Assembly: GCF_056712565.1 (NCBI RefSeq)
Contig: NZ_CM160072.1
Reading direction: 5' to 3' (one strand)
DNA: 64,000 bases
In this document: one piece after another, positions 1 to 9,616 of the stretch
Numbering within the stretch: position 1 is the first letter of the stretch
Layout: each line of letters begins with the position of its first letter
Notes under the pieces: generated by a model
Told to the model about the DNA's origin: nothing
Databases searched by the model: none
Seen by the model: the letters and a program-made list of their open reading frames with translations, nothing else
Position numbers and translations under genes: made by a program

Positions 1-1125
1 GTTGGCACCGTTGAAATTGAGGATCTACGGGTTATTCCGGTTATTTTTCTGCCCGGAGTCATGGGTTCAAACCTTATGGATAAGAAAGGAAAATCCATCT
101 GGCGATATGATGACTCTATGAGTCTGATGGGCTGGTCACTACCTACATCAGGACCAAAAGAGAGGAAAAGATTATTGCATCCTGACAGGGTGGAGGTCGA
201 TAATCGTGGGAGAATTCCCGCACCTCCGGATGCCCAAGAAAAACTTATTCAGTTAGGTCAACAATATCCGGAGGACCCATCCGATAAAGAAGCAATGGAT
301 AATTACACTCAGGCAGTACGTGACATTTTGGATAATATAGAGCCAGAAGCGAAATTATTTGGTTCAAGAAAAGATCGCGGCTGGGGAGAGGTTGCAAATG
401 CTAGCTACGGTTCCTTTCTCGATGTATTACAAACAGCATTGTACCGGGACAAACCTACAAAGAAAGGTGAGACGTTAAGTGCGACCTACCAGCAACTACT
501 CGATGTACCTTTGGGTTTGGAGTATGGTCCTGACTCACTTGATGAAGAGTATCTTGAAGTCATAAGGTTGTATCAATTTCCGGTCCATGTCGTTGGCTAT
601 AACTGGCTTGGTTCTAATATGCTCTCAGCAATCAGACTACAAGAACAGATCAAGAAAATTGTTGGAGGCTATCAAAAACGAGGAATGAAATGCCATAAAG
701 TTATTCTGGTTACGCATTCAATGGGAGGACTAGTGGCAAGGTACTTTTCAGAGTGTCTTTCGGGGAATACGGATGTCTACGGTATTGTTCATGGCGTATT
801 ACCATCAATTGGTGCTGCGGCGACATATACCCGAATGAAACGTGGAACTGAAAACCCAGAGTCAAATCCGGAAGGGTATGTTATCAGTCATATCTTAGGT
901 CGTAATGCAGCTGAAATGGTAGCTGTTTTTTCCCAGTCGCCAGGACCAATGGAATTACTACCCATGAATGATTATGGTGAAGAGTGGCTTAATATTGTCG
1001 ATCGTGATGGTAGTACATTAACGCTCCCTAAAAATCTTCCCATTAAAGAAGGTATTGCCCCCGAAGAACGCACCTACGCTGAACTTTATCTAAATAGAGA
1101 AAATTGGTGGATGAGAATCTATTGA
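1..1125 (+). CDS. Lipase-like alpha/beta-hydrolase, putative T6SS phospholipase effector (Tle-like); 5'-partial, N-terminal part
   Basis: Frame is open from base 1 (VGTVEIEDLRVIPVIFLPGVMGS...), so the gene starts upstream of the window. GxSxG nucleophile elbow GHSMGG, Ser codon at 718-720. Stops at 1123-1125. Confidence 0.55.
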   Translation, partial: VGTVEIEDLRVIPVIFLPGVMGSNLMDKKGKSIWRYDDSMSLMGWSLPTSGPKERKRLLHPDRVEVDNRGRIPAPPDAQEKLIQLGQQYPEDPSDKEAMDNYTQAVRDILDNIEPEAKLFGSRKDRGWGEVANASYGSFLDVLQTALYRDKPTKKGETLSATYQQLLDVPLGLEYGPDSLDEEYLEVIRLYQFPVHVVGYNWLGSNMLSAIRLQEQIKKIVGGYQKRGMKCHKVILVTHSMGGLVARYFSECLSGNTDVYGIVHGVLPSIGAAATYTRMKRGTENPESNPEGYVISHILGRNAAEMVAVFSQSPGPMELLPMNDYGEEWLNIVDRDGSTLTLPKNLPIKEGIAPEERTYAELYLNRENWWMRIY

Positions 1126-1718
1126 ATCCTTTTAATACTTCATTAAATCAAAAGCAAATTGATACTGATTGGAATATATATGAAAATTTAATTACTGAGA
1201 GTGTCAATCCATTTCATAAGCAAATTGCTGGAAAATATCATATCAATACTTACTCTTTCTATGGGAGAGCGAAATTGGGAGATATTCCTGAAGCGCATTT
1301 AACGCAGGAAAATGTTCTTTGGAAAGGCTCATTATCAATGGGAAAAAAAAGTGATATATCTTTAGAACCAAAATTCATTGATGGTCGTCTTGATTTAAAT
1401 GAAGTTGGTAACATTAGAACTATTAAGGATGAATTTTCTCCTGAAGAACAGGCGTGGGAAATAAATACTGACGACGGTGATACATATGTTAAGATAGGAC
1501 AGCGTTTTACATTACGAGACTCTTGTGAAAACGGGGATGGTACAGTACCTCTTCGTGCAGGACAAATCGTACACAAGAACATCCTAGAGCGTTTGGCTGT
1601 ACAGGTTTCTCACGAGGCTGCTTATCGAAATCCCGTTAGTCAGGCATTTGCATTACGTTCTATTATAAAAATAGCTCAGGAGGTAAAAAAGGATGGTAAA
1701 ATGTCATACTCTGATTAA
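1104..1718 (+). CDS. C-terminal portion of the same lipase-like protein in the -1 frame (carries candidate Asp and His of the triad); probable frameshift partner
   Basis: Contains ...GDGTVPLRAGQ... and ...VSHEAAYRNP... downstream of the Ser motif. This frame opens right after a stop at 1095-1097, only about 25 nt before the upstream ORF ends. Confidence 0.4.
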   Translation: MVDENLLNPFNTSLNQKQIDTDWNIYENLITESVNPFHKQIAGKYHINTYSFYGRAKLGDIPEAHLTQENVLWKGSLSMGKKSDISLEPKFIDGRLDLNEVGNIRTIKDEFSPEEQAWEINTDDGDTYVKIGQRFTLRDSCENGDGTVPLRAGQIVHKNILERLAVQVSHEAAYRNPVSQAFALRSIIKIAQEVKKDGKMSYSD

Positions 1719-2526
1719 CCGTAGAAATAAATGTCTGCTGATTGTTTTTATAGTCCTTATTGGATGGATTATATTCAGACCTAAAGCATATACTTATTCA
1801 CTAAATGATAAAGAAAAAGAGATGCTCATAATGTTATCACAACATCCTGAAACTCGGTACTTTGGATTTTATTCCATAGAACTTCCGGCTGATTACAAAC
1901 CAACAGGAATGGTTATGTTCATACAAGGATCGGCGATGATCCCTGTAGAAACAAAGCTACAATATTATCCTCCTTTTCTGCAATATATGACACGATATGA
2001 GGCAGAACTAAAAAACACCTCAGCATTAGATCCACTGGATACGCCTTATTTGAAGCAAGTTCACCCACTAAGTCCACCTATGAATGGAGTCATTTTTGAA
2101 CGAATGAAAGCGAAATACACCCCAGATTTTGCACGAGTATTGGATGCATGGAAATGGGAAAATGGCGTTACGTTTTCAGTAAAAATAGAAGCTAAAGATG
2201 GTAGAGCAACCCGCTATGATGGAATTAGTAAGATTGCCGAATACAGTTATGGATATAATATTCCAGAAAAAAAAGTACAGTTACTTACTATTCTTTCAGG
2301 ACTACAACCTCGTGCAGATAACCAACCCCCATCAGAAAATAAATTGGCGATACAATATGCACAGGTTGACGCTTCACTACTTGGAGAGTATGAATTATCT
2401 GTAGATTATAAAAATAGCAATAATATTAAAATAAGTTTGCAGACGGATAATAATAGTTATATTGACTCATTATTAGATATAAGATATCCGAGTAATGGAA
2501 ACAGAGCATGGTATAACTCTATATAA
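1693..2526 (+). CDS. Hypothetical N-terminally membrane-anchored protein; candidate immunity or accessory protein for the lipase
   Basis: Strong RBS AGGAGG 9 nt upstream of ATG 1693. N-terminal hydrophobic segment CLLIVFIVLIGWIIF. Overlaps the lipase 3' end (operon coupling). AT-rich. Confidence 0.4.
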   Translation: MVKCHTLINRRNKCLLIVFIVLIGWIIFRPKAYTYSLNDKEKEMLIMLSQHPETRYFGFYSIELPADYKPTGMVMFIQGSAMIPVETKLQYYPPFLQYMTRYEAELKNTSALDPLDTPYLKQVHPLSPPMNGVIFERMKAKYTPDFARVLDAWKWENGVTFSVKIEAKDGRATRYDGISKIAEYSYGYNIPEKKVQLLTILSGLQPRADNQPPSENKLAIQYAQVDASLLGEYELSVDYKNSNNIKISLQTDNNSYIDSLLDIRYPSNGNRAWYNSI

Positions 2527-2788
2527 AGGTCGTAAGAAAATTAATGGTCTGGAGATATCTGAATGGTGGGTTCGTAAGCAAATAATGTTGAACTCAGAAC
2601 CATCACGAGATTATGAATTCAATCTGGCAATCCATGAGGATAAGAAAAACAACAAACAGTTATTAAAACTTGTTATGAATTACAGTGTTGACATCTTACA
2701 CGCTGACAATGCATTAACTGAACATGAACTGATGGCGCTGTGGGAAAGTATAACAGGGACAATTAAATATCATCCCACGCAGTGGTAA
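2495..2788 (+). CDS. Small hypothetical protein (97 aa), candidate immunity-family protein
   Basis: ORF directly follows and overlaps the previous gene; a degenerate paralogous copy lies immediately downstream. Confidence 0.35.
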   Translation: METEHGITLYKGRKKINGLEISEWWVRKQIMLNSEPSRDYEFNLAIHEDKKNNKQLLKLVMNYSVDILHADNALTEHELMALWESITGTIKYHPTQW

Positions 2789-2807
2789 AGCAGATAATCA
2801 GAACAGT

Positions 2808-3176
2808 CTGGAGATATCGGAATATACTCGTGGTACTTCAAGTTGCATGGTACGCACAAGGCCCTTGTCGGAAAGGGCTTGGGCTACAGAACTCATTTAC
2901 GTGCATCTTCAAGTTTATCGGGTATAGTAGATTAAACAGCAGATCACGCTAAGTACTGACCCGCTGCAAAATTACAGGTTTTATCTGACAGTCCATGATG
3001 ATAAAAAGAATGGTGGTCAACGGTTAATACTTACGATGACTTATAGCATCAGACCTTCTGAATTCAAAAGAAGTCTTAACCGAACATGAACTGGTTGCCG
3101 TGTTGCAGCAAATGACCAGTACGCTGAAATACCCCCTCTCACAAAACATAAAGATAATGGTATCTCATTTATATCA
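2808..3176 (+). pseudogene. Decayed, frameshifted duplicate of the 2495-2788 gene
   Basis: Translations FYLTVHDDKKNGGQRLILTMTYSI and DLLNSKEVLTEHELVAVLQQMTSTLKYP (different frames) align to EFNLAIHEDKKNNKQLLKLVMNYSV...DILHADNALTEHELMALWESITGTIKYH of the upstream ORF. The 5' end tctggagatatcggaat repeats tctggagatatctgaat at 2549. Confidence 0.45.
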
Positions 3177-3251
3177 ATGACCGGGAATAGGCAACTATAC
3201 TTTCATTTTTTAAATTATTTTCCTGTTGTAAATAAATCAGAGGTAAAAATT

Positions 3252-3512
3252 ATGCCTGGGATCGTTTGTTTAGGTGATGCCACGACTCATGGTGGTAAGG
3301 TGATTACCGCAACTTCAACGCTTTTTATCAATGGCATTCAGGTAGCTCTCGTAGGTGATCTGGTTTCCTGCCCAAAGCACGGCGTGAATCCCATACAAGA
3401 AGGTGACCCGACAGCGACGGAAAAAGGTCGTAATGTCGTTGTTAATCATTGCCAATGTGCATGTGGCTGTAGGGTTATCAGTTCTCAACCAGAAAATAGT
3501 ATCGAGTCATAA
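3252..3512 (+). CDS. Small PAAR-like protein (about 86 aa), candidate T6SS spike-tip protein
   Basis: RBS GAGG before ATG 3252. Gly/Cys/His-rich pattern (CLGDATTHGGKVI...VALVGDLVSCPKHG...HCQCACGC) typical of PAAR. The ORF track start at 3177 is probably too far upstream. Confidence 0.55.
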   Translation: MPGIVCLGDATTHGGKVITATSTLFINGIQVALVGDLVSCPKHGVNPIQEGDPTATEKGRNVVVNHCQCACGCRVISSQPENSIES

Positions 3513-3513
3513 T

Positions 3514-4650
3514 ATGGGATGGCCTGTACCCGATATTCCAGAAAGAAAAATGCTACCTGAGCCTGTTTATCGACGCTGGATTATATTATTAATATCTATG
3601 TTAACAGTTGGTACTCTGTTTATTTTATCGGTCTGGAATTCTGCGACATACTGGGATATTTTTATTTATGGCGTTCTGCCAATGCTGTTTCTTTGGCTAT
3701 GTTTGTTTGGTATTGCGCTGAACAAATATGAACAATCCGTTGCAGCCTGTATAAGTTGGGAGTCTGAAAGACAACAAGTTAAACAACTCTGGCAACACTG
3801 GAGCCAAAAACAACTGGCAATAGTTGGGAATGTTCTTTTTACACCGGAAGAAAAAGGCATGAGTGTTTTACTGGGGCCACAGGAAGAGATCCCTGCATAT
3901 CCTAAAAAGGCACGACCGTTATTCTCTGCATCCCGTTATTCTCTTTCGTCTATATTCCATGATATTCACCAGCAACTGACACAACAATTTCCTGATTATC
4001 GTCATTATCTACATACTATCTACGTATTACAGCCTGAGAAATGGCGTGGAGAAACCGTGAGACAGGCTATTTTCCATCAATGGGACTTAGTACCTGAACG
4101 GACCAATACTCTTAATCAAATCCAGTCTCTTTATGATGAAAGATTTGACGGTCTAATTCTGGTTGTTTGTTTACAAAACTGGCCGGAGAATAAACCTGAA
4201 GATACGAGTGAACTGGTATCAGCACAGCTTATCTCCTCATCGTCATTTGTACGGCAGCACCAGATACCCGTTATTGCTGGTCTGGGGCGTGTAATGCCAT
4301 TAGAACCCGAGGAGTTGGAGCATAATCTGGATGTGTTATTTGAATATAACCAATTGGATAACAAACAACTACAGCATGTCTGGGTCTCTGGTTTAGATGA
4401 GGGAACGATAGAAAACCTTATGCAGTATGCTGAACAACATCAATGGTCACTTCCTAAAAAACGGCCCCTACACATGATTGATCATTCCTTTGGCCCTACA
4501 GGAGAGTTTATTTTTCCTGTCTCTCTGGCAATGCTGTCAGAGGCTGCCAAAGAAACTGAACAAAATCATTTAATTATCTATCAGTCAGCACAGTATGCTC
4601 AGAAAAAGAGCCTTTGCCTGATTACCCGGAAGCTTTATTTAAGGACATGA
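3514..4650 (+). CDS. Inner-membrane protein of unknown function (N-terminal TM segments plus cytoplasmic domain), encoded between PAAR and tssM
   Basis: ATG 3514 lies 1 nt after the PAAR stop. Hydrophobic segments RRWIILLISMLTVGTLFILSVW and IFIYGVLPMLFLWLCLFGIAL. Track start at 3403 would overlap the PAAR gene. Confidence 0.5.
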   Translation: MGWPVPDIPERKMLPEPVYRRWIILLISMLTVGTLFILSVWNSATYWDIFIYGVLPMLFLWLCLFGIALNKYEQSVAACISWESERQQVKQLWQHWSQKQLAIVGNVLFTPEEKGMSVLLGPQEEIPAYPKKARPLFSASRYSLSSIFHDIHQQLTQQFPDYRHYLHTIYVLQPEKWRGETVRQAIFHQWDLVPERTNTLNQIQSLYDERFDGLILVVCLQNWPENKPEDTSELVSAQLISSSSFVRQHQIPVIAGLGRVMPLEPEELEHNLDVLFEYNQLDNKQLQHVWVSGLDEGTIENLMQYAEQHQWSLPKKRPLHMIDHSFGPTGEFIFPVSLAMLSEAAKETEQNHLIIYQSAQYAQKKSLCLITRKLYLRT

Positions 4651-4659
4651 GGAAAAATA

Positions 4660-7600
4660 ATGCATACTCAGCGTTACGGTTTCTGGGGATATTTAATTCT
4701 GATTATTGGTTTGGCAGGGATTTGCGCTCTGTTAATTATTATTAATCAGGATGTTCTGATAAAGAGCGGAGTGTCTGCTCGTCTGATATGGGGAATATGG
4801 GCGGGATTATTTTCTCTTTTTTTACTTGGGGTTGTGTGTTCGCCGTTCTGGTGGATCCGGAAGCAAAGGAAAGCGCAATTTATTTACAGACCAAAAAATT
4901 CGGCAGAAAACGACCAACCCGTATCTTCTCCATCAGAGGATATTTTAACCGATCTCAGCTCAAATATTCGGTTACGCTATGGTCCGTTCTGGCGGCGTAA
5001 AGTCCGCCTGCTGCTGGTGACCGGCGAGCCTGAAGAGGCAGAGGCCATCGCGCCGGGGCTGACCGGGCAACACTGGCTGGAGGGCGACCACACCGTGCTG
5101 ATATATGGCGGCAGGCCAACAGCGGAGCCTGATGTCACACTGCTGACCGCCTTAAAAAAACTGCGCCGCAGCCGTCCGCTGGACGGCATCATCTGGCCGC
5201 TGACAGAAGAACAAAGCCGCCAGACCGCACAACTCGACAAAGGCTGGCGCGAACTGATAAACGGCGGTAAGCGACTCGGTTTTCAGGCTCCACTCTATTT
5301 GTGGCAGGTCTGTGACGACGGTGATTATCAGACCGGACGCCCCCTGCAAAGCGTCGGCTGCCTGCTGCCGGAACGCTGTACCCCGGAACAACTGGCTGTA
5401 ATGCTGGAAGCACAAACCCTGCCGCTGACGGAACAGGGCATGTCGCAACTGCTGGCGGATAACCGCCATGATTTCCTGCTGCGTCTGGCCCATACCCTTG
5501 CAGAGCGGGGTATCGCTCACTGGCAAAGCGTTCTGAAACCGCTGCTGGCAGGCGGCGCATTTTCTTCCCTGCGCCTGCGTGGCCTGATGTTCAGCCCGCC
5601 GCTTGCCGCCGTGCCGGAGGCCGCACCTCATGCGTGGCTGCCGTCACCGGTCTGGGCGGGCGTGACGGGTGATAACGCGCGCGGGCGCACGGTGGGTTTT
5701 CCGTGGCTGCGTACCGCACTGATGTCCGCTGTCTGCGTGCTGGTGATATGGGGGGCCGGAATGACGACCTCGTTCTTCGCCAACCGCGCTCTTGTTCAGG
5801 AAACCGGTATCCAGACGGCGCGTGCGCTCGATACCCGCCTGCCGCTGGCAGAACAACTGGTGGCGCTGCATACCCTGCAGGGCGAACTGGAACGCCTGCA
5901 ATACCGTATCCGCGAAGGTGCGCCGTGGTATCAGCGTTTTGGCCTTGAACGTAACCAACAACTGCTCGCCGCCGCTTTTCCCGGCTATGCGCAGGCGGCA
6001 AACCGGCTGGTGCGCGACGTGGCCGTTGACCATCTGCAACAGCAACTTAATGCCTTTGTCGCGCTGCCGCCCAACAGTCCTCAGCGTACCGCCACCGGTG
6101 AACAACGCTATAAGCAGCTTAAGGCATTGCTGATGACTTCCCGCCCGGAAAAGGCCGACGCTGCCTTTTTCAGTACCACGCTGATGGCGGACGGTCTGCG
6201 CTACGAGAATATCCCGGAAGGTGTGCGGCAGAGCGTGTTGCCGTCACTGCTGACCTTCTGGACGGCGAACCTGCCGGAACACCCGCAGTGGAAAACATCG
6301 CCGCCACCGGAACTGACCGGCGCAGTGCGTAAAATCCTGCTGCGCCAGATTGGTGTGCGTAATGCCGAAAACACCCTCTACCAGAACGTGCTGCAACAGG
6401 TGTCCCGCAACTACGCCGATATGACGCTGGCGGACATGACCGGGGATACCCTCACCGAATCTCTTTTCAGTACGGAACAGACGGTGCCGGGGATGTTCAC
6501 CCGTCAGGCGTGGGAAGGACAGGTCAGGGAAGCCATCGAGCAGGTGGTGACGGCGCGGCGCGAGGAAATCGACTGGGTACTCAGCGACCGCCAGCAGGAT
6601 ACCTCTGCGGATATCTCGCCGGATACGCTGCGTAACCGTCTCACCTCACGCTACTTTACCGACTTTGCCGGAAGCTGGCTGGCGTTTCTCAACAGCATTC
6701 GCTGGAAAAAGGAAGACTCGCTCTCCGGCATTCTCGACCAGCTGACACTGATGGCCGATGCCCGTCAGTCGCCACTGATTGCGCTGACGGACACCCTCGC
6801 GTGGCAGGCGGCGGCAGGCAGGGAAAACCGTGGCCTGTCAGACTCGCTGGCGAAATCGGCACAGGAACTGTTTAACGGCAAGGAGAAAACGCCGCAGCAA
6901 TCCCGTGAAGGCAACGAGCCTGTCGGGCCGCTGGATAAAACCTTCGCGCCGCTACTGCGGTTGCTGGGCGATAAGGCAGGAGGCGGTGGTGGTGATACGC
7001 AACTCAGCCTGCAAACGTATCTGACCCGCGTCACCCGCGTGCGTCTCAAACTGCAACAGGTGACCAACGCCCCCGACCCGCAGGAGATGACCCAGCAACT
7101 GGCGCAGACGGTTTTACAGGGCAAAACCGTTGACCTCACCGACACCCGCGACTACGGACGGTTAATCGCCGCCAGTCTGGGCGAGGAATGGAGTGGCTTC
7201 GGTCAGGCGCTGTTCGTCCGCCCGGTGGAGCAGTCGTGGCGGCAGGTGCTGACGCCTGCGGCGGACAGCCTGAACCGTCAGTGGCAGCGGGCGATAGTCA
7301 GCCACTGGAATCAGGACTTCGCCGGGCGCTATCCGTTCAAAGCCTCACAAAACGATGCCTCTCTTCCCCTGCTGGCACAGTATCTGCGCGATGACGGGCG
7401 CATCAACCAGTTTATCGCCGCCAACCTTTCCGGTGTTCTGAAACGTGAAGGCCGCTACTGGGTGGCTGACGCCATGAACACGCAGGGGCTGACGGTTAAC
7501 CCGGACTTTATCCGCGCCCTGAACCGCCTGCGTGACGTGGCCGACACCGCCTTTGCCAGCGGCGATGCGGGAATACATTTCGAACTGCGGGCAAAACCGG

Positions 7601-8013
7601 CGCGTGACGTGATGAAAACGCATCTGGTGATTGACGGGCAGGAGCTGGAATATTTCAACCAGAAGGAACGCTGGCAGCGTTTCAACTGGCCGGATGAACA
7701 GTGGCAACCCGGCGCATCGCTGAGCTGGACCAGCACGCAGGCGATGGAACGCATTCTGGCGGATTACCGGGGAAGCTGGAGCCTTATTCGCCTGCTGGAA
7801 CAGGCGCAGGTGACACCGGTGGACAGCAGCACCTTTAAGGTGGTGTGGAAAGCGCAGGATGGCCTGCCGCTGAATTACCTGCTGCGGGTTGAACAGGGTA
7901 AAGGGCCGCTGGCGCTGCTGGAGCTGAAAAACTTCCGCCTGCCGGGACAGGTATTTCTGACCGGCAGGAGTATGAAGGATGCGGAAGAGTATGGGGAAGA
8001 CGCCGATGAGTGA
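4660..8013 (+). CDS. tssM: TssM (IcmF-like) T6SS membrane-complex protein, 1117 aa
   Basis: Good RBS GAGGAAAAATA before ATG. Two N-terminal TM helices, cytoplasmic domain, third TM near residue 350 (LRTALMSAVCVLVIWGAGMTTSFF), long periplasmic C-terminal domain. Size and topology fit TssM. High GC. Confidence 0.8.
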   Translation: MHTQRYGFWGYLILIIGLAGICALLIIINQDVLIKSGVSARLIWGIWAGLFSLFLLGVVCSPFWWIRKQRKAQFIYRPKNSAENDQPVSSPSEDILTDLSSNIRLRYGPFWRRKVRLLLVTGEPEEAEAIAPGLTGQHWLEGDHTVLIYGGRPTAEPDVTLLTALKKLRRSRPLDGIIWPLTEEQSRQTAQLDKGWRELINGGKRLGFQAPLYLWQVCDDGDYQTGRPLQSVGCLLPERCTPEQLAVMLEAQTLPLTEQGMSQLLADNRHDFLLRLAHTLAERGIAHWQSVLKPLLAGGAFSSLRLRGLMFSPPLAAVPEAAPHAWLPSPVWAGVTGDNARGRTVGFPWLRTALMSAVCVLVIWGAGMTTSFFANRALVQETGIQTARALDTRLPLAEQLVALHTLQGELERLQYRIREGAPWYQRFGLERNQQLLAAAFPGYAQAANRLVRDVAVDHLQQQLNAFVALPPNSPQRTATGEQRYKQLKALLMTSRPEKADAAFFSTTLMADGLRYENIPEGVRQSVLPSLLTFWTANLPEHPQWKTSPPPELTGAVRKILLRQIGVRNAENTLYQNVLQQVSRNYADMTLADMTGDTLTESLFSTEQTVPGMFTRQAWEGQVREAIEQVVTARREEIDWVLSDRQQDTSADISPDTLRNRLTSRYFTDFAGSWLAFLNSIRWKKEDSLSGILDQLTLMADARQSPLIALTDTLAWQAAAGRENRGLSDSLAKSAQELFNGKEKTPQQSREGNEPVGPLDKTFAPLLRLLGDKAGGGGGDTQLSLQTYLTRVTRVRLKLQQVTNAPDPQEMTQQLAQTVLQGKTVDLTDTRDYGRLIAASLGEEWSGFGQALFVRPVEQSWRQVLTPAADSLNRQWQRAIVSHWNQDFAGRYPFKASQNDASLPLLAQYLRDDGRINQFIAANLSGVLKREGRYWVADAMNTQGLTVNPDFIRALNRLRDVADTAFASGDAGIHFELRAKPARDVMKTHLVIDGQELEYFNQKERWQRFNWPDEQWQPGASLSWTSTQAMERILADYRGSWSLIRLLEQAQVTPVDSSTFKVVWKAQDGLPLNYLLRVEQGKGPLALLELKNFRLPGQVFLTGRSMKDAEEYGEDADE

Positions 8014-9616
8014 ACTGTTGCAAAAGCTGACCCGTAGCTGTTTTGCCGACCGGGATGCACTGGATGTGGCGCGAACACAGGCGGCGCTGTGGCAGACATG
8101 GCTGCTGCCGGTGACGGCAGACACGCCGGTCGGGGAAGACCCCGGCTACCACGACGATTTCCTGCGTATACGCGACGAAATGAACAAACTTTCCGGCACA
8201 GATACCGGCCTTATCTGCCAGCTTGCCGAATCCCTGCTGCTGACGCAGGCCAAAGACGTGCGCATCGCCACTTACTACATCTGGGCGCGACTGCACCGCG
8301 ACGGTGAGCGCGGACTGGCGGAAGGACTGGCGCTGCTGACCGGACTGGTGGAACGCTTCGGTACGCAACTGCTGCCCTCGCGTCCGGCCAGCCGGAAAAT
8401 GGCGCTGGAGTGGCTGGCAGGGGAAAAGATGCTCGACAGCCTTGCCCGCTACCCGGAAGTGGCAAAAGAGGATTTTGCGAACATTGTTGCCGCTCTTAAT
8501 CAACTGACGGTTTCCTTCACTGCATGGCCCGAAGACCAGCATTCCCCCTCCCTGATGCCACTGATTAACGCGCTGGAATCACGTCTGGCGCAGTCGGGCG
8601 GGATGAACGCGGTGGTGCCGCAAAACAGCAGCAGCGTTACTGCACCGTCATCCCCGGTGGATGCGCCACAGGTACAGACCATCACCTCCGGGCGTGACCT
8701 GCTCGACCAGGCGAAAGTGCTGGCCCGTTATCTGAACGAACAGCCGCAGGGCTGGCTTTCGGCGCACCGGCTGATGAAAACCCTGCGCTGGGACACGGTG
8801 CATGAACTGCCGCCGGATGTGGACGGCAAAACCCGGCTGGCCCCGCCGCGCACCGAGTCACGCAACCAGCTTAAGCGGCTGTATGCCCAGCAGAACTGGA
8901 CGGAACTGCTGGAGCAGGCCGACCTGATGTTCAGCACCGGCGTCAGCCATTTCTGGCTGGATATCCAGTGGTATCTGCATCAGGCGCTGACTAAGGCGGG
9001 CGTACCGTGGGACAGGTGGACAGCTGTTATCCGTCAGGACCTGGCGTTACTGCTGGAACGCCTGCCAGGGCTGGAAAATCTGGCATGGAACGACGGCACG
9101 CCGTTCGCCGATGAGGTGACGCGCAACTGGATAGCGCAGCAGGTCATGATGCGGGAAGACGGCGCATGGCTTGCGGGGAAAGCCGCTGTACCGACAGACG
9201 ACGCCACAAATGACGTACTGGCGCTGGAGCCGGAAGCACTGGCGATGGCAGACAGTCAGGGCGTGGAAGCGGCGCTGGGCTGGATACAGACCCGTCCGGG
9301 CATCACCACGGCACGACAGCGCCTGTTATTGCGACTGCTGATGGCGCGGGTGGCGGAACAGTACGGTAAAAACGAGATGGCGCTCCTGCTGCTGGAAGAA
9401 CTGGATACCGCCGCACAGGGAATAACGCTGACGCAGTGGGAGCCAGAACTGCTGTTTGAAGTAAAAGCCCGGCAACTGAAACTGCTGCGTCTGCGGGCGC
9501 ACCGCTATGCGGATAAAGCCCTGCTGAACCGAAAAATGGAAATCCTGCTGGGAACGCTGGTGGCAATCGATCCGGCACGGGCAGCGGTACTGTGTGATAC
9601 GCAACATAAGGACTGA
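8006..9616 (+). CDS. tssA: TssA (ImpA N-terminal domain protein)
   Basis: ImpA_N-like signature ...PVGEDPGYHDDFLRIRDEMNKL...IATYYIWARL...GLALLTGL. ATG 8006 overlaps the tssM stop (ATGAGTGA); alternative in-frame starts at 7979 and 7991. Confidence 0.75.
   Translation: MSELLQKLTRSCFADRDALDVARTQAALWQTWLLPVTADTPVGEDPGYHDDFLRIRDEMNKLSGTDTGLICQLAESLLLTQAKDVRIATYYIWARLHRDGERGLAEGLALLTGLVERFGTQLLPSRPASRKMALEWLAGEKMLDSLARYPEVAKEDFANIVAALNQLTVSFTAWPEDQHSPSLMPLINALESRLAQSGGMNAVVPQNSSSVTAPSSPVDAPQVQTITSGRDLLDQAKVLARYLNEQPQGWLSAHRLMKTLRWDTVHELPPDVDGKTRLAPPRTESRNQLKRLYAQQNWTELLEQADLMFSTGVSHFWLDIQWYLHQALTKAGVPWDRWTAVIRQDLALLLERLPGLENLAWNDGTPFADEVTRNWIAQQVMMREDGAWLAGKAAVPTDDATNDVLALEPEALAMADSQGVEAALGWIQTRPGITTARQRLLLRLLMARVAEQYGKNEMALLLLEELDTAAQGITLTQWEPELLFEVKARQLKLLRLRAHRYADKALLNRKMEILLGTLVAIDPARAAVLCDTQHKD

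Follow-up and report, generated by a model that had tools for sequence, protein, structure and literature searches.

The tssM gene in the window, that is, in the whole stretch of 64,000 nucleotides analysed from contig NZ_CM160072.1 (NCBI RefSeq assembly GCF_056712565.1), raises the question whether an inner-membrane core subunit from a type VI secretion system (T6SS) can lack a nucleotide-binding site. The gene is an open reading frame (ORF) at 4660..8013 (+) that encodes 1117 amino acids (aa), and its product carries the RefSeq name 'ImcF-related family protein'. An earlier note, made from the sequence alone, had claimed that the cytoplasmic domain has no recognisable Walker A motif and an apparently degenerate nucleoside triphosphate (NTP) hydrolysis site, and had suggested an NTP-independent TssM. 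We found TssM to be intact, but its G-domain to have none of the nucleotide motifs. It is likely a TssM of the type known from the Sci-1 system of enteroaggregative Escherichia coli (EAEC), with a degenerate pseudo-GTPase domain that would serve as an NTP-independent scaffold.

The pattern [AG]xxxxGK[ST] is absent from the entire 1117-aa protein in a regular-expression scan. The sole GK[ST] is a GKT at aa 821, which lies in the periplasmic part and has no upstream Gly. No Walker A motif was found across the six frames of 4401-6000, and a hidden or frameshifted P-loop is therefore excluded; the canonical P-loop elsewhere in the domain that the earlier note had named as the contrary outcome was looked for in both the protein and the six frames and not found. 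Such an absence alone is expected for a random protein, so the weight rests on the comparison at the aligned site.

For this comparison, the query profile was an 80-sequence non-redundant alignment of the cytoplasmic-domain family, and the target was composed of the cytoplasmic domains of four canonical TssMs, from a Ralstonia megaplasmid, a Rahnella plasmid, a Rhizobium plasmid and the second-type E. coli TssM of NZ_CP141089.1. All four controls possess a Walker A motif (GNPAAGKS, GTQKSGKT, GPPATGKT and, in the E. coli protein, GPAGSGKS). The Walker B motif hhhhDxxG is present in all four and TKxD in three. All of them also match PF14331 (E 1e-61 to 1e-86), and their scores with TIGR03348 are 685-1185 bits. 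The second-type E. coli TssM has both Walker motifs, but TRLD in the place of TKxD; its 4.94-Mb replicon is listed among the E. coli plasmids of PLSDB and is evidently a mislabelled chromosome.

The global hhalign alignment of the family to the canonical domains gave a probability of 98.4% (E 7e-14, 309 columns), and the local alignment 96.2% (E 2.3e-9). An independent MAFFT --add alignment showed the same register; in all three, the first glycine of Walker A coincides with G122. The segment picked in the earlier note, LLLVTGEPEEAEAIAPG (aa 117-133, nt 5008-5058 of the window), is thus the true homologous position of the P-loop, on which the three alignments concur. The former Walker A, P-loop or G1 motif, at 5023..5046 (+), reads G122-E-P-E-E-A127-E128-A129 (GEPEEAEA, aa 122-129), where the positions of the second Walker A glycine, the Lys and the Ser/Thr are occupied by A127, E128 and A129. 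The former Walker B or G3 motif, at 5092..5115 (+), reads T145-V-L-I-Y149-G-G-R152 against hhhhDxxG, with Y149 at the position of the Mg-coordinating Asp. The former G4 motif (N/T)KxD, at 5308..5319 (+), is V217-C218-D219-D220 (VCDD) and aligns to TKAD or TKMD of canonical TssMs, and the segment RP(I/L)NG conserved in canonical proteins appears as RPLDG in the same alignment. Among the hallmarks of active P-loop NTPases and TRAFAC GTPases, Walker A/G1, Walker B/G3 and G4 are all missing from this TssM, and the alpha/beta fold of the G-domain is present in its model. Judged from sequence, the loss goes beyond Walker A and includes all three nucleotide motifs. The earlier note was thus borne out by the scan and by the orthologue alignment, in which both Walker motifs are absent at the aligned sites, and the degeneration extends further than it had stated, to the Walker B Asp and TKxD.

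A high-confidence structure model of the cytoplasmic domain displays a GTPase fold. The fold search matched the model to the LRRK Roc domain, Rab, Arf, EngB and Era, and also to SMG9, dynein light intermediate chain, Ski7 and Tsr1. We take the last three to be G-domains with degenerate nucleotide motifs (pseudo-GTPases); they share 5-13% identity with the TssM domain and show no sequence relationship beyond the fold. An unrelated domain in the place of a degenerate NTPase was ruled out by hhalign and the fold search. When the family profile was searched against PDB chains, EAEC TssM was the sole match (E 2e-76), and the remainder was noise with E above 0.7. A two-residue deletion was placed by hhalign at the Ser/Thr position of the former P-loop, and helix alpha1 begins two residues past G122 in the model; the phosphate-binding loop is, by this alignment and the predicted structure, physically shortened. 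According to PMC6517824, which cites Logger et al. 2016, EAEC TssM was modelled with a G-domain and a helical extension. The cytoplasmic loop of the window TssM has this same architecture without the catalytic equipment, and is a probable pseudo-GTPase.

The loss is shared by all relatives in the retrieved sets. Neither a Walker A motif anywhere in the protein nor PF14331 was found in the 120 best full-length homologues, which span E. coli, Shigella, Salmonella, Klebsiella, Enterobacter, Pantoea, Photorhabdus, Serratia, Yersinia, Rahnella, Raoultella and others. With the cytoplasmic domain as query, phmmer was run exhaustively over 1.84 billion representatives and retrieved only 252 clusters (50% identity) with E of at most 1e-3. 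None of the 150 cytoplasmic-domain relatives among the matches listed from these clusters carries a P-loop at the aligned position, and none does so among the 269 relatives, Enterobacterales included, when all retrieved sets are taken together. The most distant relatives come from Providencia, Morganella and Moellerella, from the Betaproteobacteria Cupriavidus and Caballeronia, and from the alphaproteobacterium Commensalibacter. The motif loss is, as far as these sequences go, fixed across the clade and ordinary for the class of TssM found in E. coli T6SS1 and EAEC Sci-1. The NTP-independent TssM suggested in the earlier note thus stays the best reading of the sequence, as the normal state of a class and not as a rarity.

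The residues that replaced the motifs are themselves conserved, as counted over the columns of the 80-sequence family alignment. G122 is kept in 80/80 sequences. Position 127, the second Walker A glycine, is V or I in 69/80, position 128, the Walker A Lys, is acidic (E/D) in 64/80, and position 149, the Walker B Asp, is W, Y or H in 78/80. W139 is kept in 77/80, and G150 and G151 are conserved in the family. We also observed a family-specific motif, P132-G133-L134 at 5053..5061 (+), after the shortened helix alpha1 (P in 79/80, G in 61/80 and L in 77/80). The mean column entropy is 0.63 for this motif and 1.35-1.37 for the segments of beta1 and beta3, compared with 2.26 for the entire domain. 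Such conservation points to a remodelled surface under purifying selection and not to decay. The family thus has the features of a pseudo-GTPase: homology to an active GTPase family (hhalign 98.4%), loss of the motifs and constraint on the replacement residues.

Hydropathy analysis of the protein (Kyte-Doolittle, 19-residue window) predicts three transmembrane (TM) segments, with the cytoplasmic loop between TM2 and TM3. The N-terminal hairpin of TM1 and TM2 is predicted at 4675..4857 (+), about aa 6-66 (segments ~6-38 and 38-66). It is followed by the cytoplasmic G-domain, the probable pseudo-GTPase, at 4942..5367 (+), about aa 95-236, and by the helical extension at 5383..5694 (+), about aa 242-345, which was delimited from the helices of the model and from hhalign. 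In the model, the long helices of this extension span residues 158-182 and 188-211, with a strand and a helix after them, and hhalign aligned the extension to the PF14331 region of canonical TssMs. The predicted TM3 lies at 5707..5781 (+), about aa 350-374 (hydropathy segment ~345-374), with W364, G367, S371 and N375 as conserved family columns. The periplasmic part, at 5860..7893 (+), is composed of the IcmF-related, IcmF_helical and IcmF_C (C2-like) domains, and aligns to the EAEC TssM structures 4y7m and 4y7l. All three Pfam domains were found above the gathering cutoffs, at aa 401-714 (E 1.7e-47), 866-970 (E 9.4e-43) and 974-1078 (E 1.1e-22). The window TssM matches EAEC TssM (6ixh and 6hs7) in phmmer with E 1e-282 over aa 88-1105. 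PF14331 gave no match at threshold in the window TssM, and the isolated loop reaches only E 0.058. The protein also misses the equivalog cutoff of TIGR03348, with 262.9 bits against 388.15, and only model positions 429-1167 are matched. This shortfall is entirely due to the divergent cytoplasmic domain, and it explains the cautious RefSeq name, which does not call the protein TssM.

The closest well-studied relative, and the best match among solved structures, is the EAEC Sci-1 TssM, which we take to be EC042_4539. This protein, on which structural work in the field is modelled, is also Walker-less, and reads ILLITGTASEVELLTPGLT...LLLWGGD at the aligned positions, where WGG replaces DxxG. It has T, A and S where the window TssM has E, P and E, but Glu is found at the Lys position in both. 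The two proteins have the three periplasmic Pfam domains and the cluster type T6SS1 in common, whereas the cytoplasmic domain has clearly diverged more than the periplasmic part. The effector modules of the two clusters differ, and so do their locations: T6SS1 lies in the pheU island in EAEC (PMC6730261), and beside tRNA-Met genes downstream of mltA here. The T6SS1 group of E. coli includes EAEC Sci-1 and the T6SS1 of avian pathogenic E. coli (APEC) TW-XM, and the systems of EAEC 17-2 and APEC TW-XM are functional in antibacterial competition, biofilm formation and virulence (review PMC6730261). TssG, TssK and TssL contact the TssM cytoplasmic loop in EAEC (same review). The function of T6SS1 in EAEC and APEC TW-XM fits the role of an NTP-independent scaffold.

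We propose that the loop between TM2 and TM3 is an evolutionarily degenerated GTPase domain that retained the G-domain fold and the helical extension. Its P-loop has been lost, with the loop shortened and Lys changed to Glu, its Walker B Asp has become Tyr, and its NKxD guanine motif is gone as well. The window TssM most likely neither binds nor hydrolyses NTP, and the part of the domain is probably structural only, as the platform on which the baseplate and TssL are docked to the TssJLM membrane complex; the EAEC orthologue has been described in this role. Sheath contraction would supply the energy of secretion, and the ClpV/TssH ATPase would take the contracted sheath apart so that it can be recycled; TssH is encoded by the cluster as a separate ATPase.

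The gene is widespread in E. coli. A 100% identical protein with the same start and length, WP_000557435.1 in RefSeq, is present in many genomes of extraintestinal pathogenic E. coli (ExPEC) and APEC, and the tssM DNA is 100% identical to chromosomal genes in many of these strains. It matched 1249/5426 complete E. coli genomes, and the 90%-identity cluster with the window TssM has 871 member sequences. In the complete genomes of MS8345, PA45B, FDAARGOS_1300/1302 and APEC E19019, an IS3-family transposase splits an otherwise 100% identical tssM into two matched pieces, so that in some lineages T6SS1 has been inactivated by insertion. ExPEC XM (duck, China) carries the 100% identical tssM, annotated as WP_000557435.1, inside a complete T6SS cluster. 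This strain is presumably APEC TW-XM, a guess from the name and the duck host only.

The cluster of ExPEC XM and NZ_CP025328 is flanked in ExPEC XM by mltA and three tRNA-Met genes upstream and by amiC and argA downstream. It starts with tssB, tssC, tssK, tssL, an OmpA-family gene, hcp, tssH and a gene for a DUF2345-domain protein, which is presumably vgrG. Lipase and immunity genes, a PAAR gene, a hypothetical gene and tssM follow, and the cluster ends with tssA, a PAAR toxin gene, tssF, tssG, tssJ, tssE and a VasL-domain gene. In the identical locus of NZ_CP025328, tssM is thus encoded beside tssJ, tssL and other core genes, as expected of the TssM family. None of fha, ppkA, pppA and tagF was found in this E. 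coli cluster annotation. Gene order and homology to EAEC TssM place the cluster in the T6SS1 group of E. coli, an assignment made from sequence.

Downstream of tssM in the window, tssA at 8006..9616 (+) overlaps the tssM stop; it has the Pfam domains ImpA_N and T6SS_VasJ and is annotated as such in RefSeq at the identical locus. The next gene, at 9616..11199 (+), encodes a 527-aa protein in which a PAAR domain (Pfam E 2e-9) occupies the N-terminus and the long C-terminal extension has no family match. It is presumably a specialised PAAR toxin, and the small hypothetical ORFs downstream of it are immunity candidates. The GC content is ~0.60 in the 3' part of tssM and in tssA (window 6000-10000) and ~0.39 in the modules on either side that hold effector, immunity and PAAR-toxin genes (window about 1-4000 and 10000-12000). 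This sharp contrast fits exchangeable, horizontally acquired effector cassettes within a conserved core cluster.

Some points weigh against an NTP-independent scaffold. The evidence for the G-domain fold is a predicted structure, and nucleotide binding by non-canonical contacts persists in some pseudo-GTPases. Cryo-electron microscopy of EAEC TssJLM did not resolve its cytoplasmic base (PMC6517824), and a search of one full-text library found no explicit statement that TssMs of the EAEC type lack Walker motifs. TssM of Agrobacterium tumefaciens (ImpL) shares the architecture of three TM segments, a cytoplasmic G-domain with helical extension and a periplasmic IcmF domain, but it carries the motifs G139xxxxG144K145T146, hhhhD188xxG191 and (N/T)KxD (PMC3346141), all three of which are missing from the window TssM. 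The Agrobacterium protein hydrolyses ATP, and Hcp is no longer secreted when its Walker A or B motif is mutated (PMC3346141); an NTP requirement thus exists in at least one T6SS. This result contrasts with the scaffold reading, while the one from Edwardsiella, where TssM Walker A mutants still secrete (PMC3346141, PMC4589678), fits it.

The domain could instead still bind and perhaps hydrolyse nucleotide at a non-canonical site, so that TssM would stay NTP-regulated. This would agree with the G-domain fold retained at high model confidence, with the conserved G122 and G150/G151, and with the ability of some G-domain proteins to bind nucleotide despite degenerate motifs. Against it, the Mg-binding Asp is aromatic in 78/80 sequences and the base-specificity motif is gone. 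The phosphate-binding Lys has become acidic in 64/80 and the P-loop is two residues shorter, as seen in both hhalign and the start of alpha1 in the model, and we consider the explanation improbable because these two features are hard to reconcile with phosphate binding. Somewhat less doubtful, though still unlikely, is that the former pocket was rebuilt into a new conserved functional surface, formed by G122, the acidic residue at the Lys position, P132-G133-L134, W139 and the aromatic residue at the Walker B Asp position, which would dock TssL, TssK, TssG or another ligand.

A further idea, to which we give little credence, is that a different cluster protein took over the NTPase function in trans, such as the product of the gene at 3514..4650 (+) directly upstream of tssM. 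The gene encodes a conserved unannotated membrane protein of 378 aa with two predicted N-terminal TM helices. In E. coli, Cronobacter and Providencia it lies directly before a tssM without Walker motifs, and it overlaps the tssM start in the latter two; the order of PAAR gene, upstream gene and tssM is seen again with 48% identity on a Cronobacter plasmid, with 23% identity (E 1e-13) in Providencia, and probably in Cupriavidus. However, the 378-aa protein has no P-loop, and its predicted structure is not that of an NTPase but a ketosynthase/thiolase-like fold that most resembles the DUF2875 T6SS adaptor Tla3. The gene is moreover missing from the T6SS cluster of Commensalibacter, whose TssM is equally Walker-less. 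No Pfam or NCBIfam match was obtained for the protein, and its 128 homologues have no Pfam domain and are nearly all named 'hypothetical protein'. That the degenerate site belongs to a decaying, non-functional T6SS gene, an incipient pseudogene, is still harder to credit. In its favour, an IS3 element interrupts tssM in some E. coli genomes and the T6SS1 of E. coli W was inactivated by a mobile element (review PMC6730261); but the window ORF is intact over its 1117 aa with 871 members in its 90%-identity cluster, the 'degenerate' residues are strongly conserved over three proteobacterial classes, and experiments have shown T6SS1 to work in EAEC and APEC (PMC6730261). The least probable explanation, with next to no chance of being true, is an artefact of annotation or alignment in which a wrong start, a frameshift or a misalignment hides the P-loop. 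Nothing was found in its favour: the scans of the whole protein and of the six frames were negative, no alternative frame or extension upstream holds a Walker A, the start and length agree with RefSeq, and two alignment methods agree on the site. We therefore retain the degenerate pseudo-GTPase domain of an EAEC Sci-1-like TssM as the likely explanation.

TssM and IcmF proteins without Walker motifs have been published before. Walker motifs are reportedly present only 'in a number of' TssMs, according to reviews of the Cascales laboratory. A Walker A motif could not be identified in IcmF3/TssM3 of the P. aeruginosa H3-T6SS and in several other IcmFs (PMC4589678), and Francisella PdpB also lacks it (PMC6063899). 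The window TssM resembles IcmF3 and PdpB in that its cytoplasmic loop shows no Walker A that could be recognised. It differs from IcmF3, which was reported without detectable IcmF-related and DUF1215 domains (PMC4589678), whereas the window TssM has them, and PdpB is part of the very divergent Francisella system. The window gene itself is already known and annotated in E. coli, and no TssM has been studied more intensively than its EAEC orthologue. The finding is thus essentially known and adds little for specialists; its modest increments are the site-by-site loss of G1, G3 and G4, the clade-wide fixation with conserved replacements, and the confident G-domain model.

A practical consequence is that T6SS annotation by motif or by TIGR03348 under-calls the TssMs of this clade. 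If the former pocket was rebuilt into a docking surface, the T6SS1 class would have swapped an NTP-driven conformational switch for a constitutive 'locked' state, and NTP hydrolysis by TssM would not be a core requirement of type VI secretion. The observations bear on an old dispute in the T6SS field, whether nucleotide hydrolysis by TssM energises secretion; Agrobacterium was found to need it and Edwardsiella to secrete without it. Fixation of a dead GTPase domain in the clade of EAEC Sci-1 and the common T6SS1 of ExPEC and APEC would be natural evidence that the NTPase of TssM is lineage-specific and not part of the core mechanism.

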